A DNA stretch of 49,579 nucleotides from Escherichia phage SRT8, in sequence record MF996376; one strand, given 5' to 3'. The position numbers and the translations under genes are program-made. The notes under the pieces were generated by a model, which was not told the origin of the DNA, did no database searches, and worked only from the letters and a program-made list of their open reading frames with translations. Within the stretch, counting starts at the first letter, position 1; every line of letters begins with the position of its first letter. Below are positions 6,410 to 49,579 of the stretch, in pieces.

Positions 6410-7081
6410 TTATAGTCCATCAACGTTTATAGCTGTTATTGTCACCCCTGTATTAAGATATCCTACAACGCTACCGCTTGCCGCCTGACTTGATACGGCA
6501 TTAATCCTTGTCCCGCCTCCGCTGTTATATGCTCCAGTAGACGCGGATATGTTAATTATCTGCGGCTGTCCCTGAACAAATATTTGTATAAGCGTCGCAC
6601 CCATAATCATTGGAGACACGGCATAATTCCCCGGAAGAGTCTGATCGATATTTATCCCCCCGCCATTACCTACAGTACCAACAGTAACAAGATCGGTTAA
6701 TACCCTGCTTTCATTAGTCAGTATGCAAGTCCCTGACGCGTCCCATATAGCCATTCCATAGCGCGGGGTTGGTTGCGGGAATCTTGCGAACACATACGCC
6801 GTAACTGTGAAGTGCGGGTTATTCCTTCCCTGAATACTACCGCCGAATAATATTTGACCGCCCGATCTTGTTGCGCTAAGGGTTGCCCTGTTATCAGATC
6901 TCAAGAAAACCATGGCGGGATATGATGGATTAATATCTATTGTTCCGCTAGCGCCCTTATAATCAGCGCCAACATCAACGGATGATACTGAAGCCTTAGT
7001 GTAAAGAACGAACGGAGTTGATACCGGAGTTATAAACGGATGCCCCGAATTACTGTCAATGTAAGCGCCATATCTAGCCAT
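6410..7081 (-). CDS. Hypothetical Gly/Ser/Thr/Asn-rich protein, last gene of the tail operon (possible distal tail or receptor-binding accessory)
   Basis: ORF with RBS, positioned after the J-like gene; composition typical of beta-rich fibre proteins. Confidence 0.45.
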   Translation of the reverse strand: MARYGAYIDSNSGHPFITPVSTPFVLYTKASVSSVDVGADYKGASGTIDINPSYPAMVFLRSDNRATLSATRSGGQILFGGSIQGRNNPHFTVTAYVFARFPQPTPRYGMAIWDASGTCILTNESRVLTDLVTVGTVGNGGGINIDQTLPGNYAVSPMIMGATLIQIFVQGQPQIINISASTGAYNSGGGTRINAVSSQAASGSVVGYLNTGVTITAINVDGL

Positions 7082-7083
7082 AA

Positions 7084-7389
7084 TTAAGCATTCTCCAAGA
7101 ATACAACCAATTCACAATTAGATGCCGGGTAGTTACCGATCCCGATATCAGACGCCGGATAGATTGAAATGTTATTACCGTTTGCAACTATTCGTCGGCC
7201 TATCTTTTGGCCTCCAGTATCAAGCGTTACCGCAAACCCTACTTTCATCCCCTGCGGAACATCGAAATTCCATGAGCCGGAATTCTGACCGCTACTAAGA
7301 TTTATGATTCCAATAACCGAAACTGGCTTAATGCCGTAGTTATTATAGTTTCCGTTACCGTCCCACGTTCCAATGCCGTAAGAAGCCAT
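7084..7389 (-). CDS. Hypothetical small tail-associated protein
   Basis: ORF with AAGGAGG RBS immediately downstream of the J-like gene. Confidence 0.45.
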   Translation of the reverse strand: MASYGIGTWDGNGNYNNYGIKPVSVIGIINLSSGQNSGSWNFDVPQGMKVGFAVTLDTGGQKIGRRIVANGNNISIYPASDIGIGNYPASNCELVVFLENA

Positions 7390-7439
7390 AATTCGAACCT
7401 CCTTAAAAGATATAGGGCGACGCTCGCCGCCCTAAGATT

Positions 7440-10400
7440 TTACCATACGCCAGTAATTCTACCAATCTGGACGCGAAGAACGCCATTCTGATCTCTAACG
7501 CTGATCGTCTGGTTATCCTGCTTCATCGAACCCTCGCCCGGAGTTGAACCGAAGTTAAGGAACGTGCCGTCCTTCCCTAAGTGCCACCCCGACTGATTCC
7601 ATACATAGTTGTTTGATTGAATGTATCCACCAATCATGGCATTAGTGATGAATCCGTCCTTAATCACCGCGCTACTTAGTATTACCTGCCCGCCCTCAAC
7701 GATAAACGGGTATCTAATTTGATTATTAGCACCGTTATAGATCGCGAATCTGTCGGCCTCAAACAGAAGTTGCGATTTAACACCACCCACACCAGAAGCT
7801 ACAAGCGACATTGCGATTCCGGCGCTGTACTGCTGCCCGTTGTACGTCAATCCAAGCTTAACTCCATACATCGCGCCGACTGAATCAACGTTAGCCCACG
7901 AATCAAGTTTCTGATTCAATGCCGCTTCGTTGTTTCCGATCCTTGCGCTTAACGCCGTGTCCGCCGTGGTTCTCGCTTCCGTTTCGTTGGCGATTGCCTG
8001 TTGAACCTGCGTTAACTGCGCCTGAATATCGTCGCCTACAGCCGCGCGTAAATCTTCAATTTCCTGCGATAGCGCTTCCGTTTCCGTGGCGATAACCTGT
8101 CGAAGTTCGGTATTCTGCGCGTTAATCCTTCCGTCGAAATCCGCTTCCATCTGCGAAACTTGCGTTACGCGGGCTTCCGTTTCATTCGCGATAAGCTGTA
8201 ACGACTCTTTAATCTGCGCCGTGAATTTTCCGTTCTTCACTCGCTGAATTCGGACGTCTTTGTCGTTCGCTAACGCGTTTTCGATTGCCGATTCCGCCGT
8301 GTTCTGGATTCTTGCGATCGCGTCGGTTGCGTTCTCCTTCAGCCACTGATAGCCCGGCGAATTCTCAATATCAACCTTAATTTCTCCGATAATGCTTTCC
8401 ACATCAGTAGACGCCATCCCCGGTATTAAGTTAGTCCACGAAGACACGTTGCCGATTTTGTCGATGGCGCGAATTCTATAGAAAATCATCTTCCCGGCCT
8501 CAAGCGGAGTATGGAAATACTCATGTTGCGGATACGGGACTAACGTTAGCAACGATGCATTTTCTACGCTGTTGTTTGGCGATTGCTGCACCTCTATGTA
8601 AGCCGTGTCGCCGGAGTCTTCAGGCATACCCCATTTTAACCGGATGCCGAAAACAACGTCGTCGGATGCCGTAAAGTTAATTGGCGCTCCCGGCTCGCCT
8701 ACCTTGCCAGTTAACCCAACAGTTACAACCTCAGACCACACGGAAGCATTTTCCGAAGAAGAGATAGCGCGAACCCGGACGGAGTATTCACCCGCGTAAA
8801 TACCTTCGACGAATGTTTCGTTAGTTTGTGTGCGAGGAACGTTAATCCAGTTTCCGTTATTCTTGCGCCATTGCACCTCGTAAAATGCCGCGTAATCGAC
8901 CTTATCCCAGCTAATGACCATCGTTTCTACGCTCAAGCCCTGCACTACTCGCGAAAACGATTCGACCGCTACGTTTTTCGGTGATGGCAACTTATCAGGA
9001 TCTACGACACTTGTCGGCCTGTCGTCCACATTCACGCCGTAGTCGATCGCGTCGTATTTGTTCGGGTCATACTCAACAGCCGTGATGCTGAATACGAACT
9101 CTTCGTCGCCGTCGCCCTTCTTGATATCGGTCACAACGTATTGTTGCAATGCAACGTCGGTTCGGTCGATAGCAAAGATAGTGTTTGGCGCGACGTCAAA
9201 GCCGAACCCTACGTTTATTTCTATCGTCTTGCCGTCTGGTGACACTGAAGAAATAGTGCGCTTAACGGGCTTTCCATCCGGCTTATTTACGACAATAAAA
9301 TCACCAGCGCGGGCGTCAACACGAAACGCCGTAAAAATCTGCAACCCTGATACTTCCATGACTCGCCCGGAAAGGTTTAACGTAAGATTGCTTGACCAGA
9401 AATTATCTGCAATCGCCACGACGTCGCCGATTTGCGGGATCATACCTTCCAGCCCGGTAGCAAAGTTAACCGTCGTGCTGCGAAGGTTAGTTCGCAGAAT
9501 CCAGCGTCCGCGCCTGTTAGCCTCGCTGCGTCGCGTACATCCGATCGCTGTAATGCTTGTCGGGTTATTGCCGAAGCGTCGCGCCGCGTCAGTATCGAAT
9601 ACAGGTTCAACGTCCTGTTGATATAAGTTTTCATGATCATCAAACTGCACGTTGCAAGTCGTGTACATGCTCTTTTCGCTCGCGAACGAGTAAGAGAAGT
9701 TACCGCCGACTACGTTTTCGTTGGTGAAAATGTAAGACGGGTCGCGCGGCTTATCGATCACGACAGATAAACTTTCGCCATTCCAAAACGACATACCACG
9801 GAAGATTGAACAGATATCGCGAACCAGTTTAAACGCTTCAATCTGCGACTGAATAACCACATCGCAAAGGTAACGCGGTTCGGTTCCGCCTTTTCCGTCT
9901 GGAACCATCTGATCGCAATATTGCCCGGCTTCGTATAACGCCCACTTATCGACATTAATCCCTAACTCACGCTGATCTAACCCGTAACGTTGGTTCGTGA
10001 TGATATCGTAAAGAACCCATGCCGGGTTATTACTCCACGCCTTTTTGAACGTGCCGTCCCAGCTTCCGTTATAGTCGCGGGTAATCGGGTTATAGTTCGA
10101 CGGGACGTTAATCACCTTCCACTTTTTACGAAGCGAAATATTCGGGATCTGCGTCGGAAACATCTTCGAATCGAATTCCACGAATAACAGACCAGTCAGC
10201 GGATAACGGAATTTAGCGTCGATTACTTCCGCATAGCTTTTCAACTGGATTTCGTCGATCAGGTTAGAATCGTCGGAATCAGGAGTAACGCGCGACACTC
10301 TCACGATTACTTGACTGTTGAACGCCGGAAGATTGATTCGGCGGCTACGGTCATAACCCGACATTGTTTTACCGTCGATCACGTCGGTGAAGTATTCGGT

Positions 10401-10865
10401 AAACGCCGCCCCATCGACAGCCAATTCTACTTTGTATTCGACGCGAACGCCGTTCTTGTCGCCGTTGTTTTCCACCTTCACGCCACGCGGCATATACATT
10501 TTGATACGGATAGCTGAAAGCGACTTGTTCGTAACGTTAATGCTGTATGGCGTATCTCGTTCGATAACGCGATTCATCGTTACTTCGCTTGCGCTGTCGG
10601 TGAATCCCTGTATGTAATCTTGCGTTTGCGTACCGGGGCGAAACTCCGCCGTGATGCCTTCATAGTTGTATGTTCCGTCGTCGTTCATTACCGGAACGTC
10701 GTTAAGCAACAGCATTTTCATATCAAAGTCTGGATCGACTTCGCCGTCTGACACTGCCAGCAAAACGCGAATCTTGTTGATTGAAATCAAATTATCTTCC
10801 ATCTCAACAGGATTGTGAGGCTTGCCGCCACCGCCTTTCGATCCGGTTATCACTTTTTTAATCAT
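7440..10865 (-). CDS. Tail tip / central tail fibre, host specificity protein (lambda gpJ-like) with coiled-coil C-terminal region
   Basis: 1141-aa ORF at the end of the lambda-like tail operon after I/K/L/M; heptad-like repeats TEARVTQV and TEALSQEI in the C-terminal region. Confidence 0.85.
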   Translation of the reverse strand: MIKKVITGSKGGGGKPHNPVEMEDNLISINKIRVLLAVSDGEVDPDFDMKMLLLNDVPVMNDDGTYNYEGITAEFRPGTQTQDYIQGFTDSASEVTMNRVIERDTPYSINVTNKSLSAIRIKMYMPRGVKVENNGDKNGVRVEYKVELAVDGAAFTEYFTDVIDGKTMSGYDRSRRINLPAFNSQVIVRVSRVTPDSDDSNLIDEIQLKSYAEVIDAKFRYPLTGLLFVEFDSKMFPTQIPNISLRKKWKVINVPSNYNPITRDYNGSWDGTFKKAWSNNPAWVLYDIITNQRYGLDQRELGINVDKWALYEAGQYCDQMVPDGKGGTEPRYLCDVVIQSQIEAFKLVRDICSIFRGMSFWNGESLSVVIDKPRDPSYIFTNENVVGGNFSYSFASEKSMYTTCNVQFDDHENLYQQDVEPVFDTDAARRFGNNPTSITAIGCTRRSEANRRGRWILRTNLRSTTVNFATGLEGMIPQIGDVVAIADNFWSSNLTLNLSGRVMEVSGLQIFTAFRVDARAGDFIVVNKPDGKPVKRTISSVSPDGKTIEINVGFGFDVAPNTIFAIDRTDVALQQYVVTDIKKGDGDEEFVFSITAVEYDPNKYDAIDYGVNVDDRPTSVVDPDKLPSPKNVAVESFSRVVQGLSVETMVISWDKVDYAAFYEVQWRKNNGNWINVPRTQTNETFVEGIYAGEYSVRVRAISSSENASVWSEVVTVGLTGKVGEPGAPINFTASDDVVFGIRLKWGMPEDSGDTAYIEVQQSPNNSVENASLLTLVPYPQHEYFHTPLEAGKMIFYRIRAIDKIGNVSSWTNLIPGMASTDVESIIGEIKVDIENSPGYQWLKENATDAIARIQNTAESAIENALANDKDVRIQRVKNGKFTAQIKESLQLIANETEARVTQVSQMEADFDGRINAQNTELRQVIATETEALSQEIEDLRAAVGDDIQAQLTQVQQAIANETEARTTADTALSARIGNNEAALNQKLDSWANVDSVGAMYGVKLGLTYNGQQYSAGIAMSLVASGVGGVKSQLLFEADRFAIYNGANNQIRYPFIVEGGQVILSSAVIKDGFITNAMIGGYIQSNNYVWNQSGWHLGKDGTFLNFGSTPGEGSMKQDNQTISVRDQNGVLRVQIGRITGVW

Positions 10866-10868
10866 GAT

Positions 10869-10890
10869 GTTTAACCTTTTGTGCTATTTA
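10869..10890 (-). promoter_or_regulatory. Palindromic element (AAATAGCACAAAAGGTTAAA) directly upstream of the J start, preceded by a TATAAT box at 10901-10906
   Basis: Late-gene arrangement: terminator, -10 box, element, ATG. Confidence 0.45.
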
Positions 10891-10912
10891 TCGGTGTTTC
10901 CATTATACAGGC

Positions 10913-10936
10913 GAAAAAAAACCCGCGCAAGGCGGG
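10913..10936 (-). terminator. Intrinsic terminator after gene I (hairpin CCCGC-GCAAG-GCGGG plus T8 on the minus strand)
   Basis: Hairpin and T-run; almost the same hairpin recurs at 13052-13075. Confidence 0.6.
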
Positions 10937-10942
10937 CTAATT

Positions 10943-11545
10943 TTATGCCATATCTTCAGCGTAGGAACCTGCGGAGAAGGTCGCCCCGCCGACAGTTCGT
11001 TCGCCATACGGAAGCGGGATCGGATACCCCGCCGCCGTTGTGTTCACCGCCCCGCCGAAAGCATAGGACGGCTTGTTCTTGCTGGATTGCACTTCGAAAT
11101 TTTGCCCCCCAGCTTGCGGGCTAATCATCTGCATTACGCCACCCAAAACCATAGCGCCGCCCATCATAAATGCGGAGGAAGCAAGCGCCCCCATCGCCGC
11201 CAGCGACGCGCCAGCCGTAAAGAATGCCGCAACCATAATCGCCGCACCTAACACGATTTGAAACAGACCGCCCGACTTTGAACCAGTAGGGATCGGGAGG
11301 ATTCGAACTTCGTTAGCGCAAGCGAACTCTTTTTCGTTGTTGTGACTAATGTTCTTCCCGTCAACGAATACGGCGTACTTCATTCTGGAACCGACTTCGC
11401 TTTGCATGTAGTCTTTAAAGCCCTCCACCTGCGACGACAGCGCCCGAATTGCTTCCGGGTATGAATCAACAGCCAGATAGTGAAAGACGCCGAAACGACG
11501 CCCCAGCGAACCAGAAAGCTTTATTTTCTTCAATGATGTATTCAT
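10943..11545 (-). CDS. Tail assembly protein (lambda gpI-like)
   Basis: Position after K; ATG at 11545 overlaps the K stop as ATGA; hydrophobic C-terminal half. Confidence 0.7.
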   Translation of the reverse strand: MNTSLKKIKLSGSLGRRFGVFHYLAVDSYPEAIRALSSQVEGFKDYMQSEVGSRMKYAVFVDGKNISHNNEKEFACANEVRILPIPTGSKSGGLFQIVLGAAIMVAAFFTAGASLAAMGALASSAFMMGGAMVLGGVMQMISPQAGGQNFEVQSSKNKPSYAFGGAVNTTAAGYPIPLPYGERTVGGATFSAGSYAEDMA

Positions 11546-12258
11546 AGTTTCAGATCCTTGTGTCTGCAAATCATAACAGTGTGCTCCTGATACCAACCGG
11601 AATATAAATCTTCACGCGACAACTTGCCGAACGCGTGATGCAAGATCTTGTTATCGCCTACGTAAATCCCGGCGTGGTTCCATACTGGCGATTGTAGTTG
11701 CATGATAATCATATCGCCCGGCCTCGGTTCCTGATTGGTCGGGACGAACCCTTCGGCCTGATAAAGATCCTGATACAGATTTTCCCCGAACTCAGGTTTC
11801 CACCATTCATAAGGTTTTCTGTAATCGCCTAATTCGATTCCGTGTTCTTTGTGGTAAGCCATAACTAAGCCCCAGCAATCAAACGAGCCTAGCGCCCACG
11901 GCCTACCAATCAGCGGAAGCGTTGACGGTTGAACGAATCGCATATCACCTTCAGGCAAGCTAACGATAGTCCACATGACGCCCATTTCGTTACAGACACA
12001 TGTATCGTGCGGCGAAGGTAGTGTAGTTGCCCCGTCGCCAGTATGACTATGAACCACACTAACCAGTTCGCCACATTCCAGCGCGTCGGCGTACTGTTGC
12101 GCGTTCATTTCGAAATGGTTTTCCGGGTCGTCGTGCATGTTGTCGATCCTGTGGTAACGCTGAACCCGGCTTTTTTGGGTGACAACCCCGCAACACTCAG
12201 CGGGGTAAGCGTCCTGCGCGTGGCGCATGATTTCGATCTTAACTTTTGCATTAATCAT
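11542..12258 (-). CDS. Tail assembly protein (lambda gpK-like) with JAB/MPN and NlpC/P60 domains
   Basis: HSHTGDGATTLPSPHD JAMM-like motif followed by a Cys/His peptidase-like region; ATG at 12258 (track start 12291 is TTG). Confidence 0.75.
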   Translation of the reverse strand: MINAKVKIEIMRHAQDAYPAECCGVVTQKSRVQRYHRIDNMHDDPENHFEMNAQQYADALECGELVSVVHSHTGDGATTLPSPHDTCVCNEMGVMWTIVSLPEGDMRFVQPSTLPLIGRPWALGSFDCWGLVMAYHKEHGIELGDYRKPYEWWKPEFGENLYQDLYQAEGFVPTNQEPRPGDMIIMQLQSPVWNHAGIYVGDNKILHHAFGKLSREDLYSGWYQEHTVMICRHKDLKL

Positions 12259-13008
12259 TGCATTTTCCTCTGTAGTGAAGCGACGGCACAACCACCGAAA
12301 TCTAATTCCTGATCCGCGCCGAAGCGAAGTTTACATGCCGTTAATGTGCCGGGGCAAAAATCTTTCGACGGGTCGTCTACCGGATTATTGTCTCTGTCGA
12401 AGTAATTCGTTCCGGCATACGCGCAACCCTTGCCGCTTTTATACCATCCACGTTGCGCCCAATAACAAACGCTTTGCGACGTGCGCGGCGGGATCATAAT
12501 CCCATCCATATCATAAGGTGATGTGAGATCGAATCGTGCTAACGTTGAATCGACGTAATCCGGGCGCTCAATGTAGTAAACCAGCTTTCGGAACGCGCCG
12601 TCTTCGATCGTGCCGTACGTTCATTAAATCTTTCGGCGCAACCCATATCGTAACCTTAGCTTGCATCATGCCATTGTAGGAACGGATTAGCGCGGCAACC
12701 TGCGAATCAATGTTAGAGATCGTAAGCTTAGGTTTTCCGGCCTTTCCGTTACTGGTGAACGAGATCCCGGAAATGCCAAAAGGTCGCGCCCCGTATTGTT
12801 CGCCCTGAAAGGTGATTTCTTTCGGCGGCAATACACCAGTTTCACGCGCTTGCATAAGTTCTTCAGGCGTGTACGCGATATTCTCAGCATGGAATCGGTA
12901 GACCTGCGCACCGAACTTCTCGCCGTCAATCTCTACCAGCGTGATAATCTCGCCGGGGTAAAGGGATTGCAGGCAGTTTTCCCATTTTTCTTTACCAGTT
13001 TCAGCCAT
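12255..13008 (-). CDS. Minor tail / tail tip protein (lambda gpL-like), reading frame interrupted by a 1-nt frameshift near 12620
   Basis: N-terminal part in ORF 12568-13008; Cys-rich C-terminal part in a second frame open from 12620 to 12255; intact frame restored by removing one A at about 12620-12621. Confidence 0.7.
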
Positions 13009-13051
13009 TTTATTTACTCCATTTGTGAATGTGCAACCATTCTACAGCCAT

Positions 13052-13075
13052 AAAAAAGCCCGCGCAAGGCGGGCT
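13052..13075 (-). terminator. Intrinsic terminator after gene M (GCCCGC-GCAAG-GCGGGC plus T6 on the minus strand)
   Basis: Hairpin and T-run; followed by a TAGAAT -10-like box before gene L. Confidence 0.6.
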
Positions 13076-13089
13076 ATTGTTAGATAGTG

Positions 13090-13443
13090 CTATTCCATAG
13101 ATGTAAACTGTTCGGAAAACGTAGCGCGGATTTCGTTCAATCCCGGCGCGATCGGGGTAAGCGCAACCGAACCAGACTTCACAATGAACAAGCCTAATTG
13201 TTCATCTGGCGGAAGCCATAAAAACGGCTTCAGTCGATGCCCGGTACAAAATGCCTTAACCGCCTTCCAATCATTGCCAGCGTATACGATCGTAAACTCC
13301 CGGCGCTCAGTGTTAAATCCAGACGATGCAACTTGCTTGTAGCCGTTACCGAAAACGACTTCCCTGTCGTTGTTCTCGGTAGTCATTGCGCCGCCGCTAT
13401 TCTGAATTTGTGTACACCATGTAAATTCGTCTAGCGTCGCCAT
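13090..13443 (-). CDS. Minor tail protein (lambda gpM-like)
   Basis: 117 aa, between tape measure and L as in lambda. Confidence 0.7.
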   Translation of the reverse strand: MATLDEFTWCTQIQNSGGAMTTENNDREVVFGNGYKQVASSGFNTERREFTIVYAGNDWKAVKAFCTGHRLKPFLWLPPDEQLGLFIVKSGSVALTPIAPGLNEIRATFSEQFTSME

Positions 13444-13446
13444 TGA

Positions 13447-16152
13447 TTAGCCTCCTGTTTTTTCCATAATGTAGGTGTAAGCTTTGCCACCTTGTGAAAA
13501 CGATTCGTTAATCATTTCGTTGCAGATCATACGAATGCCCTGCTCAAGCCCTTTTGGATCGTTGCCGTTATTCACATCGACTCGCATCCCGCTAACGTCG
13601 ATATAGTTCCCAGCGCCAGCGCCACCGCTTGAAAGCGTTAACCCTGCTCCGCGCGAAGCATTGCCAACTGAACCGCCGTTCGCATAACCGCGCATTAGTC
13701 GGTTTAGGTTGCCAACCCCGATCCGGCTTGTCGCCTCCTTCGTGAACACGAATTCACCGCCGTGAACTACGCCTTTCGGTTCGTACTTGCCGCCGTTCCC
13801 GGTATAACCGCCATTAGCAAACCCGCCCGCAAAACTCCACGTAGAGCCGCCCATCATACCAGAAATCGAATTGAAGATTACCATCTTAGTAATCATCTGG
13901 ATAATCTGGCTAATGATGCTCTTAGCGAAATCTGCGAAGTTCGCTTCACCGGTCATGAGGAATTCCGCCATCATATCAGACATTCCCGACAGCGCGTTCG
14001 AAGCAATGTTCCCTACATTATCATACATGTTAGTTGCTTCTTCGCCGTAGGTGGCAAATGCTGATTGCGCCCCAGCCAGCCAATCGCCGCGTTTTTCGTC
14101 TTCGGCTGCGTAGTATTTTTCTTGCGCTTCCTGCATACGCTTGAACGTGTCGTCCTCAAGACTTCCGCCCTTCGCTAACCAATCCGCTTGCATCTTCTGG
14201 CGTTCCGCTTCACGTTGTGCCGCAAGTGCGCCCATGCTTCGCGTATCGTTTAGCGTCTTCGTTGCCTGTTCCATTTGCAACACGAATTTAACGGAATCTT
14301 GATTCAACTGGTTTAGCCGTTCCTGCTGCGCAATCTGATCGCCTAGTTCGGCTTTCTGTTGTGCGCGGGCTAGTACCTGTTTCTGTTCCAGTAATAACGC
14401 TTGCTCCGCATTTGTTAACTTGCGTGTGGATTGCGCTTCCTCCAATACCTGAATCTGTCCTTCGACAGCCCATAGTGCTTTACGCTGTTGCGAAATGCGA
14501 TCGTTAATGCTGGCGTGTTTTTGCAGTGTCACTAACTGCGCCTGAAGCACGTAAAGCTCTTTGTCGAGTTGCTCGGTAGGTGCTCGCGTGATACCGCCAG
14601 AACCTTTCTTGCCGCCCTTCGTGCCTTTCTTCTTCTCCGCCTCCTTCGCCTGTTTCACTTCGTCTTCGCGAATCTTGATTAACTTTTGAGCGTTGGCGAT
14701 TGCTTCTTTATTGCCGGAAGCCGCGATCGCGTTGGCGTTCTTTCTCGCGTCGGCTAATGCCTTCTCAGCCCCGGCGACACGATCCGCCGCTAAATATTCT
14801 TTGTTAATCAAATCGACGGTTTTCGCTACATGCTTGTTACCTTCAATTCGCGCCGTGTTAACTTGCTGATTAAGCGTTTTAGCCTGTTCCAGCACTTTTA
14901 CAATCGGGTCAACTGCGCCGCCCAGCGCGACAGACTGTTTCCCTTCGTTCGCCCCGGTGTAATAGTTTTTCACCTCTTCCGCCGCATCGCTCCACGCGTC
15001 TTTGATTTCCAGAACCTTTAATCGGTGCTGTTCAATGTCAACGTTTAGCGCCGTGAAATCGCCCGATTTCTTGTACTGTTCGACACGCTGTCGCGCTTCG
15101 TCATAGCTGATCCCGACGTCTAACATTTTCTGTAACGACTCTTCCGCGCCGTCTTTCGTCGAAATGAAAGCTTTGATTACTTCGTCTGCTGATTGGTCGG
15201 CGGCTTTCGCGATCCCCATAATGTTCAAGGACAACCGATCAGCGTAATCGCCAGTAATCCCAAGTTGTGTATTGACTGCGGATTGAGTTTCCTTGATCTC
15301 GTTGCGGGTACTGACAACCTTATAAATCAGTGCTCCCAGCGCCCCAACCGTAACGCCCAATCCGACGTTAAGCGGATTCAGGAAAGACAACAGAACTTTG
15401 AACGTATTACCCAGCCCGCCGAAGCTGTCTTTAATCTGTCCGCCCTGCTGGATTGCTACCAACCAAACAGGCATACCGGAAGCAAGCGACGTTACAACGT
15501 CCGTAATCTGCGCCGGAAGCATTCGCATTGCTTGCGCATATTGCCCGGCAGAAACGCCAGCCAGTTTTAAACCCTTCGCCTGATTATTCAACTGCGCGAT
15601 AAATGGCGCGGCCTGTTCGCTTACGCCTAATTGCGCGGCCTTCAGTTCTAAAACTTCTTGCGCCGTCTTGCCAGCGAATAAGGCTTGCTGTTCTAAGCTC
15701 TTGATGAAGTTTTGCCCGGCCTTCGTTGCCACCTCCTTCTGGCGTGATGCTTCCGCCGCCGCTCGACCTTCAGCCGTTAACGCTTGCTGATTCTTGCGCA
15801 ATGCAACCTCTTGCGATTCCAGAACTTCGCCAAGCCGGAAGAATTCGTCGTCCGGTACGACGCCTTTTTTCCAAAGTGCGTCTAACTGCTTCGCCGTTTC
15901 GCGTAAGCGGTTCATGCTCTTGACTGTGGGATCGATAGCCGCTACAACGTTGGAGTATTCCTTCGCCTGTTTCGACAGTTCACGCGCGTGATCCTTTGCC
16001 TTCTGTTTCGCAACTTCCGTTTGATTTAGAAATTCATGGGTCGAGTCCGCCGCGCCGTCGTTCGCCTTCGCAAATTCACGAAGAGACTTTACAGCCCGAT
16101 CGACTTGCGATACGTCAACACCTAGCGACAATCCCGCGTATTGTTCCGCCAT
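13447..16152 (-). CDS. Tail tape measure protein
   Basis: 901 aa, long Ala/Gln/Glu/Lys-rich coiled-coil stretches, Gly-rich C-terminus; directly after the G/GT chaperone genes. Confidence 0.85.
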   Translation of the reverse strand: MAEQYAGLSLGVDVSQVDRAVKSLREFAKANDGAADSTHEFLNQTEVAKQKAKDHARELSKQAKEYSNVVAAIDPTVKSMNRLRETAKQLDALWKKGVVPDDEFFRLGEVLESQEVALRKNQQALTAEGRAAAEASRQKEVATKAGQNFIKSLEQQALFAGKTAQEVLELKAAQLGVSEQAAPFIAQLNNQAKGLKLAGVSAGQYAQAMRMLPAQITDVVTSLASGMPVWLVAIQQGGQIKDSFGGLGNTFKVLLSFLNPLNVGLGVTVGALGALIYKVVSTRNEIKETQSAVNTQLGITGDYADRLSLNIMGIAKAADQSADEVIKAFISTKDGAEESLQKMLDVGISYDEARQRVEQYKKSGDFTALNVDIEQHRLKVLEIKDAWSDAAEEVKNYYTGANEGKQSVALGGAVDPIVKVLEQAKTLNQQVNTARIEGNKHVAKTVDLINKEYLAADRVAGAEKALADARKNANAIAASGNKEAIANAQKLIKIREDEVKQAKEAEKKKGTKGGKKGSGGITRAPTEQLDKELYVLQAQLVTLQKHASINDRISQQRKALWAVEGQIQVLEEAQSTRKLTNAEQALLLEQKQVLARAQQKAELGDQIAQQERLNQLNQDSVKFVLQMEQATKTLNDTRSMGALAAQREAERQKMQADWLAKGGSLEDDTFKRMQEAQEKYYAAEDEKRGDWLAGAQSAFATYGEEATNMYDNVGNIASNALSGMSDMMAEFLMTGEANFADFAKSIISQIIQMITKMVIFNSISGMMGGSTWSFAGGFANGGYTGNGGKYEPKGVVHGGEFVFTKEATSRIGVGNLNRLMRGYANGGSVGNASRGAGLTLSSGGAGAGNYIDVSGMRVDVNNGNDPKGLEQGIRMICNEMINESFSQGGKAYTYIMEKTGG

Positions 16153-16171
16153 ATGTTATTACCTCCAGATA

Positions 16172-16198
16172 AAAGAAAAGCGCCCGAAGGCGCTTATT
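16172..16198 (-). terminator. Hairpin (AAGCGCC-TTCG-GGCGCTT) with T-rich tail after the T-frame ORF
   Basis: Inverted repeat read directly. Confidence 0.45.
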
Positions 16199-16520
16199 TG
16201 CTGTTATGGTGCATCATTTCTAATGCTTTCTGTTCCATAACACGAATATCGTTTAACACCTGCTCTTCATCGTCTATTTTATAGATTTTGAACAACATAG
16301 GCAAAACATTATAATCAAGACCGTAAGCCCCAGCGCCCGCGCTTCTCCACTGCGTACCCATCGCACAAAACACGTCATACGATTGGATCATATCTTCAGG
16401 GAAATAAAGTATTTCCGGTTCCTCGCCTTCGTAGTCAGAACGGGACAGGCCGACAGATCTTAACTCTTCATCTGTGGGCGGTTTCTGGTACATCAGATAA
16501 ACCGCCCGCTTTAGTTTTTT
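16194..16520 (-). CDS. T-frame extension of the tail assembly chaperone, expressed as a G-T fusion by -1 ribosomal frameshift
   Basis: Frame is continuous with G in the -1 frame from the slippery site to the stop at 16194. Confidence 0.7.
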   Translation of the reverse strand, partial: KKLKRAVYLMYQKPPTDEELRSVGLSRSDYEGEEPEILYFPEDMIQSYDVFCAMGTQWRSAGAGAYGLDYNVLPMLFKIYKIDDEEQVLNDIRVMEQKALEMMHHNSK

Positions 16521-16825
16521 ACGCGTTGCCCTGCCAGCGCTCGAAGGTAGGTTGACGTAAGAGCCAGCGCCGCGCCCGGATAGTAGCGGACAAGCATTTC
16601 GGCGTTTTCTTGATTAAACTCTTCTTCCAGATCCCAGCCGGAAGCCAATTCCATAATGAAATCGTGGTCTTTGATATCTTGTCGATCGTAAAGCTCCTGC
16701 ACTTCGTTAGACGGGCGATGCTTCACTTTGAAAGTGATTTTCGCTTCGTCGCCGTTCGGCATGATGAATTTTACGGGTAGTGCGAAGTCAGGCAGTGCTC
16801 CCAAAGTAATTTTGAATTTAGCCAT
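16511..16825 (-). CDS. Tail assembly chaperone (lambda gpG-like)
   Basis: 104 aa between major tail and tape measure genes; ends in slippery site. Confidence 0.75.
   Translation of the reverse strand: MAKFKITLGALPDFALPVKFIMPNGDEAKITFKVKHRPSNEVQELYDRQDIKDHDFIMELASGWDLEEEFNQENAEMLVRYYPGAALALTSTYLRALAGQRVKN
16514..16520 (-). other. -1 programmed frameshift slippery heptamer A-AAA-AAC at the end of the G chaperone gene, with stem-loop at 16476-16507
   Basis: Heptamer in the zero frame spans codons AAA AAC before the TAA stop; 9-bp stem GGGCGGTTT/AAACCGCCC starts a few nt downstream. Confidence 0.75.
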
Positions 16826-16847
16826 TGTTGATTCTCCTGATAGGTAA

Positions 16848-16870
16848 TAGCACGAATTGCTAAAACAGCG
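16848..16870 (-). promoter_or_regulatory. Palindromic element (aatagcacgaattgctaaaaca) just upstream of the G chaperone RBS
   Basis: Consensus match; follows the hairpin at 16906-16930. Confidence 0.45.
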
Positions 16871-16905
16871 TCGAGCCGATTTGATACGATGATTCTACAG
16901 AAAAG

Positions 16906-16930
16906 AAAAAGGGGAAGCAAGCTTCCCCGG
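16906..16930 (-). terminator. Intrinsic terminator after the major tail protein gene (GGGGAAGC-TTGC-TTCCCC plus T-run)
   Basis: Hairpin and T-run on the minus strand. Confidence 0.6.
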
Positions 16931-16937
16931 AGTGATG

Positions 16938-17594
16938 TTATTCGGATGCAAGGTAAGTAAATTTACCTTTCAGGGAAACGGACAAGGAAACAGTTTCCAT
17001 CTCGTTTACCTGCGTTTGTGGGATATCGTTAAACGACAGAACCCCAGCCCAAAGGCGCATTTCTTTAGCCTTCGGAACGAACATTCGAAGCGGCGTTACT
17101 TCGCCGGATTCGTCCAGACCGCGAAGGATCGGGTAAATCGCGTTATCAAATTCGTGCGCGAAGCTGTAAGTAAGCGACACGGCAGATTTGAAGGTCGGTA
17201 ACTGCTGTTCCTGATCGTCAGAAAGGCACTGGTAAGTGTAATACTGCTGCTCGCCGCCGTCCTGCCCGATATCCTGTACGCAAGGGATCTCAGTCCATGC
17301 GGTAACAGGTCGGAACGAAGCCGGGTTAGTACCTGTTGGGAATACGTTCGCGTTGGTAGTGTCGATACCCTCAAGCGTTACGCTTACATCTTCGGATACA
17401 GCCTTAACACGAAGGACGCGATCCAGAAGACGCCCCCACGCGGCGGAAGTAACTAACACATATTGACCGACAGTTACGCCGGAAGTTGACGCAACAGAGA
17501 AGACCGGATCGGCAGCGTTTGAAACGTTGGTTGCCTCGATCTCAGCGCCCAGCGTGGAACCGATAAAAATTTGTGAACCATTAGGAAGGTGCAT
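16938..17594 (-). CDS. Major tail protein
   Basis: 218 aa, strong AAGGAG RBS, followed by a terminator, immediately upstream of the G/GT chaperone pair. Confidence 0.7.
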   Translation of the reverse strand: MHLPNGSQIFIGSTLGAEIEATNVSNAADPVFSVASTSGVTVGQYVLVTSAAWGRLLDRVLRVKAVSEDVSVTLEGIDTTNANVFPTGTNPASFRPVTAWTEIPCVQDIGQDGGEQQYYTYQCLSDDQEQQLPTFKSAVSLTYSFAHEFDNAIYPILRGLDESGEVTPLRMFVPKAKEMRLWAGVLSFNDIPQTQVNEMETVSLSVSLKGKFTYLASE

Positions 17595-17606
17595 AATTGT
17601 AACTCC

Positions 17607-18017
17607 TTATTTTTTGTCTTTACGAACATAGAATCGGACGGGATAAGACCAGCCGCCGACAGATTTTTGTACCGGGTGAACCTTTCCACCGTCTACGATA
17701 TAACAATCGTTAATCAGCATTTTACCATCTTCGAAAAATTCCGCAATATCACGCGCTAACATTCTAACTTTATCCATTCCCAAACCCGGCGCGAAGTGGA
17801 TAGAGATCTGAACCATTCCAACCGCGTATTTGCATTTGCGGGACAACCCGACGAATACCGTGTCCGCTTCTTTGTAGTCGAACTTCAGCCACGTAGAACC
17901 ATCAGCGGGAGGATCGAACGGCACACTTTCGTAAGCAACAGGAAAAACATATTCCGGGGCGCTATTAATGAAGTTGCTTAATTCATTACGCGCCGCAACT
18001 GCTAGATCATAGTGCAT
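17607..18017 (-). CDS. Putative tail terminator / tail completion protein
   Basis: Position between neck genes and the major tail gene; start moved to the internal ATG at 18017 to avoid a 120-nt overlap. Confidence 0.4.
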   Translation of the reverse strand: MHYDLAVAARNELSNFINSAPEYVFPVAYESVPFDPPADGSTWLKFDYKEADTVFVGLSRKCKYAVGMVQISIHFAPGLGMDKVRMLARDIAEFFEDGKMLINDCYIVDGGKVHPVQKSVGGWSYPVRFYVRKDKK

Positions 18018-18450
18018 TTTTAGCCCTCGATTGTCTGATCGCGTCCGCCATGAAAGAGCGAAGGCGAATTGCCACCACGCCAACGACGCCAGCCGGGGCT
18101 TGTTTCGAATGCCCGTACTCAAGCGCATTAGCGTAAATCAGCATGTTAGAAAAATAGATTGACGTTATAGCCGCGCCACGTCGAAGAGTGAACACGCTGG
18201 CTACACGCTTCCCGTATGCGATCGTTTGTCCGCCTGATTTATCATATTGGTTTAGAGCGTACATAGGCGGAGCGTTAAAAGTTATCTGCCAGTTAGCTCT
18301 AAATCGCCCTGTATCGACCGGAGAACCCATTACTAACGCCTTGTGAACCTCTTCAATGAAGATTCGTAACGTGTCCTCCAAGCCGTTCCCAGCCGCTTTA
18401 ATCCACGCGTCGATTGACGCGTGAAATTGCCGAATCTGATAATTAGCCAT
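18007..18450 (-). CDS. HK97 gp10-like tail-component (neck) protein
   Basis: VDTGRFRANW motif resembling the gp10-family signature; position. Confidence 0.5.
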   Translation of the reverse strand: MANYQIRQFHASIDAWIKAAGNGLEDTLRIFIEEVHKALVMGSPVDTGRFRANWQITFNAPPMYALNQYDKSGGQTIAYGKRVASVFTLRRGAAITSIYFSNMLIYANALEYGHSKQAPAGVVGVVAIRLRSFMADAIRQSRAKNAL

Positions 18451-18820
18451 ACAGAGCCACCCTTCGCAAAATCGGGCGGTATGCGACGACAGTCCCGGAC
18501 GGTTTAATCGGACGCGGGTCTACAACTTCATACTTCACGCCGTCAACTACGATCCAGTTGCCTTTATGGATGTACTCTTCAAAGGTGAAGATTCCGCGCT
18601 TATCGTCTGCCCGGATGGTGTCGCCGTTAACGTCACGCGCCTGAATATCCCGGATAACTCCCTGAATGGTTAACACCTCTTCAGGCTGGACAACCTCGAC
18701 GCCGTTTACCATCGTTACGCCGCCACCACGAATTAGCGTACATTCGCCACCGCCCAGCATAGGATCAGCAAAAAAGCCGATCCCGTCTTTCGCCAGTTTT
18801 TGCAATGCTGCATAGTTCAT
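18443..18820 (-). CDS. Putative head-tail adaptor / head closure protein
   Basis: Synteny; ATG at 18820 overlaps the upstream stop as ATGA. Confidence 0.4.
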   Translation of the reverse strand: MNYAALQKLAKDGIGFFADPMLGGGECTLIRGGGVTMVNGVEVVQPEEVLTIQGVIRDIQARDVNGDTIRADDKRGIFTFEEYIHKGNWIVVDGVKYEVVDPRPIKPSGTVVAYRPILRRVALYG

Positions 18821-19230
18821 CGTCCGCACCCCCTACGAAGCCCTGTCATTAAACCCATACCGCCGCCACTCTTGCGAAGTAAAGCTCGGTACATTTTGCC
18901 CCACGGCGTTTGTTCAAGAACATCATTCGAAGTCGTCTTCGATACGTCGCCGAATGTTTGTGAAAATTCACCACTCAGGGAAAATGACGTTACACGGCGC
19001 GTCATTGATTCTACGCTTTCGGTTCCCTGTTTCATTGCCCCATCCAATACCATCAAATGAAGCGCATACAATGCAACGGCTTTATGATAGCGCGACTTGA
19101 ATTTCGATTTGCAAACGTAGTCGCTTGCAAGGTCAATCCATACTTTGATTTGTGCCGGGTTAATGTTTTGCATTGGCGGAGCCAGCGCGACAAGGATCAC
19201 ATAGACTTCTTGCAATTCTTCTTCTGACAT
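18817..19230 (-). CDS. Putative head-tail connector (head completion) protein
   Basis: Synteny; GGAGG RBS. Confidence 0.4.
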   Translation of the reverse strand: MSEEELQEVYVILVALAPPMQNINPAQIKVWIDLASDYVCKSKFKSRYHKAVALYALHLMVLDGAMKQGTESVESMTRRVTSFSLSGEFSQTFGDVSKTTSNDVLEQTPWGKMYRALLRKSGGGMGLMTGLRRGCGR

Positions 19231-19249
19231 TTCATTACCTCCAGATATG

Positions 19250-19271
19250 AAAAAGGGCGCATATAGCGCCC
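19250..19271 (-). terminator. Hairpin (GGGCGC-TATAT-GCGCCC) plus T-run on the minus strand
   Basis: Read directly. Confidence 0.55.
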
Positions 19272-19280
19272 GGACTCGGT

Positions 19281-19586
19281 TTAGAATTCGCCGCCGTCTT
19301 CAAGTTCTTTTTGTGACTTGCCAGCGGTAGGATCTGGCTTACGTCGCGCTTCCATTCGTTCGCGGATTTCGTCGGTCGCGTCGCGGTCGTCTTTTATTTC
19401 TAACGCGCCTTGTCCGAAAAGGTATTCAATGCCGGAAGTCTTCAGAAGTTCGGCGGATACTTCCATTTCATCGCCCGGCATAAGCTTTTCGCCGTCAATG
19501 AAAATCAGCGCTACACCAGCATTAATGATTGCCACTTTGCCGGATTCGGTTACTTCGGATTTTGCTTTTTTGGTTTCTTTAGCCAT
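19281..19586 (-). CDS. Hypothetical acidic protein encoded directly after the major capsid gene
   Basis: ORF with RBS between two terminator hairpins. Confidence 0.4.
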   Translation of the reverse strand: MAKETKKAKSEVTESGKVAIINAGVALIFIDGEKLMPGDEMEVSAELLKTSGIEYLFGQGALEIKDDRDATDEIRERMEARRKPDPTAGKSQKELEDGGEF

Positions 19587-19605
19587 GTTGGTTTACTCCT
19601 GATAA

Positions 19606-19636
19606 TAAAAAAGGGACTCAAATTAATGAGTCCCTA
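19606..19636 (-). terminator. Intrinsic terminator after the major capsid gene (AGGGACTCA-TTAATT-TGAGTCCCT plus T-run)
   Basis: Strong hairpin and T5 on the minus strand. Confidence 0.65.
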
Positions 19637-19647
19637 TATTAAGGCAA

Positions 19648-20625
19648 TTACTCGGTGACTGCAAGCCCGGTAATCAGGACAATCGTCAACGGACGGTAGA
19701 TTGTCAGGCCAGTACATTTAGAAGTGCAAGGCACTTTGAAATGCAGGTCTTTCGGCTGTGCTGGCAGCATGTTAAACGCTTCCGGGATCTCGATAGACAT
19801 ATTCATCGGATCGTATTCGTAAACCAATGCGCCTTTTGTGCCGGAGCCGTCGATATCTTCCAACTCTGCGATCGCTTCGATGGTGATATTACCGTTTTGC
19901 TTCTGGAAATATTCAAGATAGCTTTCAGTAGTATCAGTCATGCGAACGGTCAGAACTTTACGCATAGACGGCGGAATCAGAATGTGGGTCGCGCGGTGTG
20001 CGCCCATAGTCAGCGTTTCGATGGTTTCGATTGCTGCGGTCAATTCTTCTTCTGCGTTTTCCGGCAGTTTAGTAGTAACGCCGCCAGTGGTAGAAGTCCA
20101 GCCCTTAGACGTAATCTTCGTAATGTTCGGATGATTGAACACGCTTACGATTTTGTGCGGAGCGGAGCCTTTGAAGACCAGACGGTTTACAAGCTGATCA
20201 TGCGCAAGCTGTGCCGCGTTCGCTTTGCGATTCGACAGAGATTTGCCAGTCGCTTGACCTGCTTTGATTTCGTCAATAGAAATCAGATACGCATTACCCA
20301 GGCGGAACACTTTACCGAATTCGCTTGATGCCATTGCATCTACCAGCGGCAAATCATCGGTATAATCGGCGATAATTTGCGCGATACCGACTTTATCAAA
20401 AGTCTGATATTCGAAGGTTTTATCAACTGGGGAAAGGTCAGACGTAACCGGGAAAACGCGAAGTGCGGAGCCAGCCGGGTAATCTTTTTCGTAAGACTGC
20501 GACTTCAGCTTATTAAGTTCCTGCGCCGTCCAAATGCCTAGCGTGTCGGCGTCCGCTTTAGTGCCGCGCATTTGCAGGTGATTAGCAACGACGGAAGCTT
20601 CGAATTCATCATATTTTTTAGCCAT
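19648..20625 (-). CDS. Major capsid protein
   Basis: 325 aa, very strong RBS AAGAGGAAA, flanked by terminators, position after scaffold/decoration genes. Confidence 0.65.
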   Translation of the reverse strand: MAKKYDEFEASVVANHLQMRGTKADADTLGIWTAQELNKLKSQSYEKDYPAGSALRVFPVTSDLSPVDKTFEYQTFDKVGIAQIIADYTDDLPLVDAMASSEFGKVFRLGNAYLISIDEIKAGQATGKSLSNRKANAAQLAHDQLVNRLVFKGSAPHKIVSVFNHPNITKITSKGWTSTTGGVTTKLPENAEEELTAAIETIETLTMGAHRATHILIPPSMRKVLTVRMTDTTESYLEYFQKQNGNITIEAIAELEDIDGSGTKGALVYEYDPMNMSIEIPEAFNMLPAQPKDLHFKVPCTSKCTGLTIYRPLTIVLITGLAVTE

Positions 20626-20676
20626 GTTTTCATTTCCTCTTATTGGTGAAAAGCCGTTAATTGATAACGGCTTTAT

Positions 20677-20696
20677 GATAGCACTTTTTGTTAAAG
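20677..20696 (-). promoter_or_regulatory. Palindromic element (atagcactttttgttaaag) with hairpin 20651-20675 upstream of the capsid gene
   Basis: Consensus match in inverted orientation relative to the gene. Confidence 0.45.
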
Positions 20697-20714
20697 CGTC
20701 AAACTGTTTTTATG

Positions 20715-21497
20715 TTATGGTTCGGGCGGCGCTTCCGTGACGGTAATCGGGCGCGTGATCGTGTACTTGCCGGAGTCGTTCGCCGTCCATACGATGTTAG
20801 TAGTGCCAGCCGCTACGCCAGTGATTAAACCCGTATCCTGATCTACCGTCGCGACGCCTTCGTCTTCCGAAGAGAATTTACCAGTTCGATCCGGCGCGGC
20901 TGGAGTGATAGCGATTAACCTTGCCTGAACGGTTGCCCCCACTTCGATCGAATTCGGGTTAATGTTCATTCCGCCACTTTGCACAACCAAAAACGCGTTA
21001 ATACCCTGAACTAATTGCACCTCAAAGATTGCAACGTTAGGCTTGATAATCACTTTACCGCCAGTGAATCGCCAGTTAACCAGCGCCCCGCCAGAAGTGC
21101 CGACAGTGCCGTTTGACTGAATTCGAACGCGCTGTCCGAAAGTTGGCGTAATATCCGTGTTGTTACCGTAAACCCACACGCGACCATGCGTTACGACGTT
21201 AATCACATCGCCTACGTTATACATCGCGTAACCGTCCGCCGATTCATGCGGCGCATAGTGATGCGTCATTGCGATCCCGTATGGCACATTTTGAGTAGAA
21301 ATCAGGCTTTGACGAACGATTTTATGCCCGCCCGGATCTACTGACTCAACCCACACGGCGCAACCTGAAAAGACGTGTTCGCCGCCGATGCCTTCACCCT
21401 GCCCGCCCACAACACAAGCGCCGTCGATGTTATAGTCCGACGTGTCGGAAAGACAGCCGGGAAAAGCTTTTAGAATGACGTTTCCATAATCTGACAT
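20715..21497 (-). CDS. Capsid decoration-like protein with C-terminal bacterial Ig-like (Big_2-type) domain
   Basis: C-terminal ATVQARLIAITPAAP...VTEAPPEP region resembles Ig-like domains; N-terminal half is paralogous to ORF 21560-22036. Confidence 0.5.
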   Translation of the reverse strand: MSDYGNVILKAFPGCLSDTSDYNIDGACVVGGQGEGIGGEHVFSGCAVWVESVDPGGHKIVRQSLISTQNVPYGIAMTHHYAPHESADGYAMYNVGDVINVVTHGRVWVYGNNTDITPTFGQRVRIQSNGTVGTSGGALVNWRFTGGKVIIKPNVAIFEVQLVQGINAFLVVQSGGMNINPNSIEVGATVQARLIAITPAAPDRTGKFSSEDEGVATVDQDTGLITGVAAGTTNIVWTANDSGKYTITRPITVTEAPPEP

Positions 21498-21514
21498 ATT
21501 TTATTACCTCCAAT

Positions 21515-21546
21515 AAAAAAGGGACTATCCAAAAGGATAGCCCCCA
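21515..21546 (-). terminator. Hairpin (GGGGCTATCC-TTTT-GGATAGTCCC) plus T6 on the minus strand
   Basis: Read directly. Confidence 0.6.
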
Positions 21547-21559
21547 TATTAACGGTTAA

Positions 21560-22036
21560 TTACAGTTGCATCAACTGAATTTCTACCAGCTTCAGATCTT
21601 GATAAGTGGTGAAGCCGCCCGCGTAAGTCCACGTAGTTTCAATCGCGCCGTCTGCTTTCTGCTGTCCGTCAACGTCGAATTTAACAGGAGTGCCGAACGC
21701 CGGGGCGGTGGAGTCTTTAGAGATAACCCAAACGCGACCGGAAGTCATAACGTTTAGACCGCCGCCAGCTTCGTAATACATCTGGCCGTTTTTGCCTTTA
21801 GTCTGGAAGTGTGAACGAATCGCGATACCGTAAGGAACGCCCGCCGCCGACATTGGCTTCATAACTTTGTGACCATCAACCGCTTGAACGCTGTCAATCT
21901 GTACCGCGACGCCAACGAGGATATCAACGTCACCATTCAGGACACACGCGCCGTCAATGTTATATCGGGAGGTGTCCGCAACCATACCCGGAAGCGCGAT
22001 CGCCATATCTTTCTGATAGCTTGCTGCAATTGCCAT
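21560..22036 (-). CDS. Capsid-associated protein, paralog of the N-terminal domain of ORF 20715-21497
   Basis: Shared motifs YNIDGACV, VPYGIA, GRVWV between the two proteins. Confidence 0.5.
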   Translation of the reverse strand: MAIAASYQKDMAIALPGMVADTSRYNIDGACVLNGDVDILVGVAVQIDSVQAVDGHKVMKPMSAAGVPYGIAIRSHFQTKGKNGQMYYEAGGGLNVMTSGRVWVISKDSTAPAFGTPVKFDVDGQQKADGAIETTWTYAGGFTTYQDLKLVEIQLMQL

Positions 22037-30428: not shown

Positions 30429-30535
30429 TATTTAACCCCTTTAATTACTTTCGCCACATCTACGATAACGCTATACATAATGTAAGCAAGAAAAAACGTT
30501 AATACCGGGTGCGCTTGCGAATGCGTAAAATTCTG

Positions 30536-31720: not shown

Positions 31721-31777
31721 TGTTGAATCTCCGTTTGTTGGTGTAGGGGGGAATCATAGCGCATTCCCCGTGATAGG

Positions 31778-49455: not shown

Positions 49456-49507
49456 ACACGCATTGACGAAACAGTTTTAACAAAAAATGCTATTGAGGAA
49501 TTTACTA

Positions 49508-49579
49508 TGACGATGAAACGTATTGCAGAATCAACTGGTGAAATCGACCGTCGCCACATCAACGGGAATAATGGTACAC
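49508..49579 (+). CDS. 3'-truncated ORF starting MTMKRIAESTGEI, runs off the window edge
   Basis: ATG with GAGGAA RBS after promoter; only 24 codons visible. Confidence 0.3.

Follow-up and report, generated by a model that had tools for sequence, protein, structure and literature searches.

Gene L and its neighbours in the tail-tip module

The window, by which is meant the whole 49,579-nt stretch of Escherichia phage SRT8 DNA that was analysed (MF996376), holds a tail-tip module in the order found in lambda and T1, namely tape measure, M, L, K, I and J (Table 1). Gene L spans 754 nt, against the 756 nt of an intact orthologue encoding 251 residues, and no single uninterrupted frame runs through both of its domains, as the frame changes after codon 130. 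The N-terminal ORF starts at 13008 and ends in ...KDLMNVRHDRRRRVPKAGLLH at a TGA stop (12570..12568). The C-terminal frame, which is open from 12620 down to 12255 just as the preliminary description had it, begins TYGTIEDGAF and encodes TYGTIEDGAFRKL...CAVASLQRKMQ before its stop. By sequence comparison, residues 1-130 and G133-Q251 of the SRT8 protein are the same as those of the phage IME-JL8 protein, and a shift of +1 (equivalently -2) is needed to rejoin the two frames.

Table 1. Positions of gene L, its parts and the neighbouring tail genes in the SRT8 window.
Feature	Position	Strand	Remarks
Gene L, interrupted	12255..13008	minus	lambda gpL / T1 gp36 hub-protein homologue; Pfam Phage_tail_L
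L N-terminal ORF, 146 aa	12568..13008	minus	residues 1-130 native; the last 16, VRHDRRRRVPKAGLLH, out of frame
L C-terminal frame, 121 codons + stop	12255..12620	minus	ACG at 12620; stop 12257..12255
Overlap zone, 53 nt	12568..12620	minus	fusable by a +1/-2 shift; without recoding signal
Lesion	12615..12618	minus	G-T-A-C here, G-AAG-A-C in relatives
ATG-started ORF, 84 aa	12255..12509	minus	publicly annotated as 'putative minor tail protein' (ATN93790.1 / YP_009615415.1)
Gene K, 238 aa	11542..12258	minus	JAB/MPN + NlpC/P60; ATG overlaps L stop (ATGA), preceded by GAGG
Gene M, distal tail protein	13090..13443	minus	Phage_min_tail; intact; directly upstream of L
Tape measure protein	16152..13447	minus	
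Gene I, 200 aa	ends 10943	minus	orthologue of IME-JL8 ORF10
Gene J	10865..7440	minus	

That a gpL-type gene is here divided between two frames had been proposed from the ORFs alone, and both the ORFs and their positions were confirmed. The N-terminal fragment matches PF05100 over model positions 2-77 (E=3.7e-13, 49.7 bits) and the C-terminal fragment over positions 106-204 (E=3.4e-27, 95.6 bits), each above the curated cut-off of 25 bits for that family, and an intact orthologue scores 142.8 bits over positions 2-204. Since the matches of the two halves are collinear and do not overlap, the two ORFs are, judging from their sequence, one gene in two frames and no chance pair of ORFs. The annotation of SRT8 in both GenBank and RefSeq keeps L split.

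The lesion compared with related phages

The closest public genome, that of IME-JL8 (MT023084), is 99.7% identical over a query consisting of L and its flanks, and like SRT8 this phage belongs to the species Sertoctavirus SRT8. The two share the M-L-K-I-J order and the ATGA overlap of L and K, and the DNA of the IME-JL8 gene (ORF12, QIG61998.1, 251 aa) is the same as that of SRT8 except for the lesion, the only difference within the 754-nt gene. At this point IME-JL8 has GAAGAC, encoding E131-D132, within one ORF, whereas SRT8 has GTAC and two frames. In a four-way DNA alignment IME-JL8, BrunoManser and IME347 read AAC-GAN-GAC-GGC (N, E/D, D, G) where SRT8 reads AAC-G-T-AC-GGC; GAAGAC is present in IME-JL8, in two SRA-derived assemblies and in one metagenome contig. 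On the minus strand a T at 12617 thus stands in place of AAG, so that 2 nt are lost on balance (on the plus strand, an A in place of CTT at window position 12617). Read from the alignment, the lesion is a complex deletion-substitution by which codons E131-D132 are lost and a palindrome, CGTACG, arises.

The alignment with L homologues that the preliminary description had proposed as a check showed the frame of the relatives to be continuous, and it also redefined the lesion. What had been taken for a 1-nt frameshift at 12620-12621 is the replacement of three nucleotides by one at 12617. Removal of one A at 12621-12620, the repair suggested at the time, does formally rejoin the frames, and its arithmetic is right because +1 is equivalent to -2; the protein that it yields (KDLM-TYGT) is, however, not the ancestral one, as the relatives have KDLMNEDGT. 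For the same reason the out-of-frame tail, earlier counted as 17 residues with N130 included, comes to 16, N130 being native.

The lesion is private to the SRT8 record. The sequence KDLMNEDGTIEDG, including E131-D132, is common to every one of the 10 proteins in the 90%-identity cluster. When intact L was compared by tblastn with 50,697 phage records, 1326 had a match; in 1282 of them a single place accounted for at least 80% of the protein, and in the best 60 of the 1326 matched records L lies in one uninterrupted piece each. Contigs of SRR6840810 and SRR19631151 encode the exact intact 251-residue L; they were considered as independent data on SRT8 and set aside as such, being 97.2% and 98.4% identical, respectively (97-98.6% for contigs with intact L), and derived from relatives other than SRT8 itself. 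In IMG/VR viral and JGI metagenome contigs the lesion allele gave 0 matches, with the intact allele as a control giving only 0 and 1; since the intact allele was found there only once, absence of the lesion allele from these collections is weak evidence against a genuine mutation.

The intact L genes of the relatives contain a 10-nt direct repeat, CGAAGACGGC, present twice with a 15-nt period and encoding EDG...EDG (12585-12625, minus strand). Each copy holds a GAAGAC (BbsI-type) site, a GATC Dam site lies between the copies, and the first copy is the one struck by the lesion. No mechanism was found that would tie the CGAAGACGGC repeat to the lesion. An origin by templated mutation or by gene conversion was also considered and rejected: nowhere in the genome, on either strand, is there another copy of the junction-spanning 7-13-mers that could have served as a donor.

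Consequences for the protein, and ways around the break

Intact L is 78% identical to T1 gp36 (PDB 9L9P chain J; E=1.6e-138) and matches lambda gpL with E=3.8e-13. In lambda gpL an N-terminal HDI beta-sandwich (residues 1-166) is followed by a C-terminal iron-binding domain in which Cys173, 182, 205 and 212 ligate a [4Fe-4S] cluster (PMC10721106), and T1 gp36 has the same arrangement (PMC11945409); L is a conserved structural part of the tail tip (PMC10721106; PMC11945409). The intact protein resembles T1 gp36 (9L9P) and lambda gpL (8IYK/8K35) in belonging to PF05100 and in the succession of HDI and iron-binding domain. Unlike its T1 and lambda counterparts, SRT8 L is interrupted, at the equivalent of lambda residues ~117-120, with which N130-E131-D132 align; the break thus falls within HDI and not at a domain boundary. 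C182, C196, C219 and C226 of intact L align with lambda C173, C182, C205 and C212 and are the predicted Fe-S ligands, and all four lie downstream of the break and out of frame. Substitution of any of these cysteines in lambda gpL is said to have abolished its activity in the hands of Tam et al. in 2013. A phage with the lesion allele should not assemble tails.

Translation from a second start offers no plausible way out. Neither ATG nor GTG nor TTG occurs in the C-terminal frame before M168, whose ATG at 12509 lies 37 codons past the break, is not preceded by a Shine-Dalgarno sequence and would give a product from which the conserved residues 133-167 are missing; because this start is so late, so poorly placed and so costly, there is no plausible rescue of L from within the C-terminal frame. 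The same facts bear on the idea that L now functions as two polypeptides, the 146-residue N-terminal fragment and the annotated 84-residue C-terminal one. In lambda (gpL/gpJ) and in RcGTA (gp13/gp15) hub domains are naturally spread over separate proteins (PMC10721106), and the 84-residue ORF does stand as a protein in the public record; against this, the SRT8 break goes through a beta-sandwich, the second piece begins too far downstream, and no relative examined has such an arrangement. A functional split is considered extremely improbable.

A further possibility is that the frameshift is real and is bypassed between 12620 and 12568, either by a +1/-2 ribosomal shift or by transcriptional slippage, to give a near-full-length L. 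In the 0 frame the codons of the overlap are AAC GUA CGG CAC GAU CGA AGA CGG CGC GUU CCG AAA GCU GGU UUA CUA CAU UGA, and a shift anywhere within these 53 nt would fuse the two frames. The shifted frame contains the rare arginine codons CGG, CGA, AGA and CGG, and by eye the AAA-G in CCG AAA GCU would allow +1 re-pairing from AAA to AAG; with three copies of L per virion (PMC10721106), even a low efficiency might suffice. The rare arginine codons may indeed stall the ribosome, but no slip-capable P-site codon precedes any of them. The AAA-G is followed by a common codon, GCU, with no nearby stop and no upstream Shine-Dalgarno-like stimulator, and the terminal CAU-UGA is unable to slip. Transcriptional slippage is ruled out because no homopolymer in the zone exceeds 3 nt. 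A codon-by-codon inspection by eye found no slippery or hungry-codon motif in the 53-nt overlap, and no stimulatory RNA structure was detected in a 121-nt region (minimum free energy -28.5 kcal/mol against a mean of -31.4 kcal/mol for shuffled sequences, z = +0.91). In all relatives examined L is a plain uninterrupted ORF, which rules out a programmed feature of the family. Since there is neither a slippery site nor a stimulatory structure nor conservation, recoding at L is not supported, and it is regarded as highly improbable.

A weaker form of this explanation holds that the lesion is real in viable virions and that functional L comes from unprogrammed +1 slippage in the overlap; this too would be most improbable. 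A shift at AAA-G is predicted to yield the N-terminal ORF through ...VPK followed by LVYYIERPDYVDS..., that is, a protein with 11 wrong residues forming a scrambled loop within HDI. A predicted junction peptide of the fused frames would be, for example, DLMNYGTIEDGAFR. Were such slippage to prove true, it would mean that a three-copy hub protein can cope both with being made in very small amounts and with a loop of altered sequence. Even taken together, recoding and a functional two-piece L are judged very unlikely.

Programmed frameshifts in phage tail genes, of the lambda G/GT type (-1) or the prfB type (+1), likewise make one protein from two frames in a tail gene cluster. The break in SRT8 L is unlike these in lacking a slippery motif, a stimulator and conservation, and in its +1/-2 direction. 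By contrast, the G/GT chaperone genes of the same genome do have a textbook -1 site, A AAA AAC.

This heptamer lies at about 16521-16515 on the minus strand, just before the stop of a 104-residue ORF (16825..16511, Phage_TAC_4). The -1 frame entered there reads ...KKLKRAVYLMYQKPP and runs into a 99-residue ORF (16493..16194, DUF1799). On its sequence, the stretch 16511-16525 has the appearance of a true -1 programmed frameshift site of the G/GT type. In the relatives the Phage_TAC_4 and DUF1799 ORFs are annotated as two separate 'tape measure chaperone' CDSs.

A mutation in the phage or an error in its record

The quality of the remaining genome bears on whether the lesion belongs to the phage or to the record. 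The lesion lies in a block of 1527 bp which is otherwise the same as in IME-JL8, the flanking differences being at 11956 and 13483. Over the 14-kb tail module (window 7000-21000) there are about a dozen further columns that differ from IME-JL8, all of them single substitutions. When 84 BrunoManser proteins were compared by tblastn with the whole 49.6-kb genome, L was the only gene split between frames; the other multi-frame matches were to a paralogous pair of cement proteins and to a gene that the window ends interrupt. Other uncompensated indels relative to IME-JL8 that fall where BrunoManser gives coverage either occur in BrunoManser too or fall within short homopolymers or variable tracts, and those at 30509 and 30527 are intergenic. 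A generally low sequence quality was accordingly considered and rejected; the SRT8 record is not generally poor, and the lesion is one isolated anomaly in it.

A few other observations concern these records more broadly. A poly-G tract at window 31741-31746, poly-C when read on the coding strand, varies in length among close relatives, with six G in SRT8, five in IME-JL8 and four in BrunoManser. It lies just past the ATG annotated as the start of IME-JL8 ORF43, and because a shorter protein is annotated in BrunoManser, the true start of ORF43 is probably downstream, with the tract in the leader. The BrunoManser 'putative transcriptional regulator' bas12_0031 is represented in SRT8 across the window ends, residues 1-24 at 49507-49578 and residues 25-148 at 3-374; the genome is circularly permuted or terminally redundant, and the point at which the SRT8 record opens it is arbitrary. 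The two paralogous capsid decoration (cement) genes lie next to each other at 20718-22036 on the minus strand, encode 158 and 260 residues with ~34% mutual identity, and match the Pfam families Phage_cement and XM1_gp53_minor_capsid. Several IME-JL8 product names look wrong: in MT023084 (locus L004) a 1141-residue J-like tail tip protein and a 136-residue tail terminator are both named 'putative ATP-dependent helicase', and L and M are named 'hypothetical protein'.

The sequenced DNA of SRT8 may truly carry the AAG-to-T change, acquired during laboratory propagation or present as a major subpopulation. The record would then be correct and L, inactivated or crippled, would be a very young pseudogene or a defective allele. 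The otherwise good quality of the genome, with no second frame-split gene, is in keeping with this, as is the nature of the change, since a complex deletion-substitution is unusual among platform errors; the replacement of 3 nt by 1 nt is atypical of errors of the homopolymer type. The lack of any other change in the gene would suit a very recent event and an error equally well. Viewed as a pseudogene, L provides no independent allele (a weak test) and no other change within the gene. On the other side stand the conservation of L in the tail tip (PMC10721106; PMC11945409) and its uninterrupted state in the relatives examined, the absence of a donor in the genome for a templated change, and, with little force, the absence of the allele from the viral and metagenome collections. 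With HDI broken and the Fe-S domain lost, neither plaques nor a lysate consensus would be expected without a helper. A genuine mutation is considered unlikely; it is retained as an alternative because the record is clean, the 3-to-1-nt change is atypical and an artefact is seen here only indirectly.

It is quite probable instead that the frameshift in L is a consensus or assembly error in the SRT8 record. We infer an artefact because L is essential and SRT8 is a propagated isolate; as a named, isolated phage that is the type of its species, it would be expected to have a working L. The lesion is confined to one record and isolated within conserved sequence, as an artefact would be, and a record error is the simplest account of a change that is private, isolated and incompatible with function. 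Of the three explanations put forward in the preliminary description, a sequencing or assembly indel is thus the one favoured, and the evidence argues against recoding. The error would have arisen in base-calling, assembly or editing of the deposited consensus, and the two short L CDSs of the public annotation would be its by-product. The real phage would make an ordinary L of 251 residues, the same as that of IME-JL8, which would serve as a tail-tip hub protein composed of the HDI beta-sandwich and then the [4Fe-4S]-binding C-terminal domain. A search for an independent resequencing or second assembly of SRT8 found none, nor were SRT8 reads, coverage data or a primary sequencing paper found; the literature cites SRT8 only as a relative of other phages.

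Were the lesion real, an essential hub protein of a viable phage would bear a change that looks lethal; nothing in this analysis points in that direction. On the favoured reading, in which the record is at fault, the result matters mainly for curation, and the SRT8 reference entry would deserve a flag on L. Within the Drexlerviridae, SRT8 is the exemplar for a species and a genus recognised by ICTV (Sertoctavirus SRT8), and from its RefSeq record the split L and the 84-residue 'minor tail protein' fragment pass into protein databases and are carried over to comparative annotations. In all probability the frameshift is no biological feature, and L of SRT8 is an ordinary member of a well-known and structurally characterised family.
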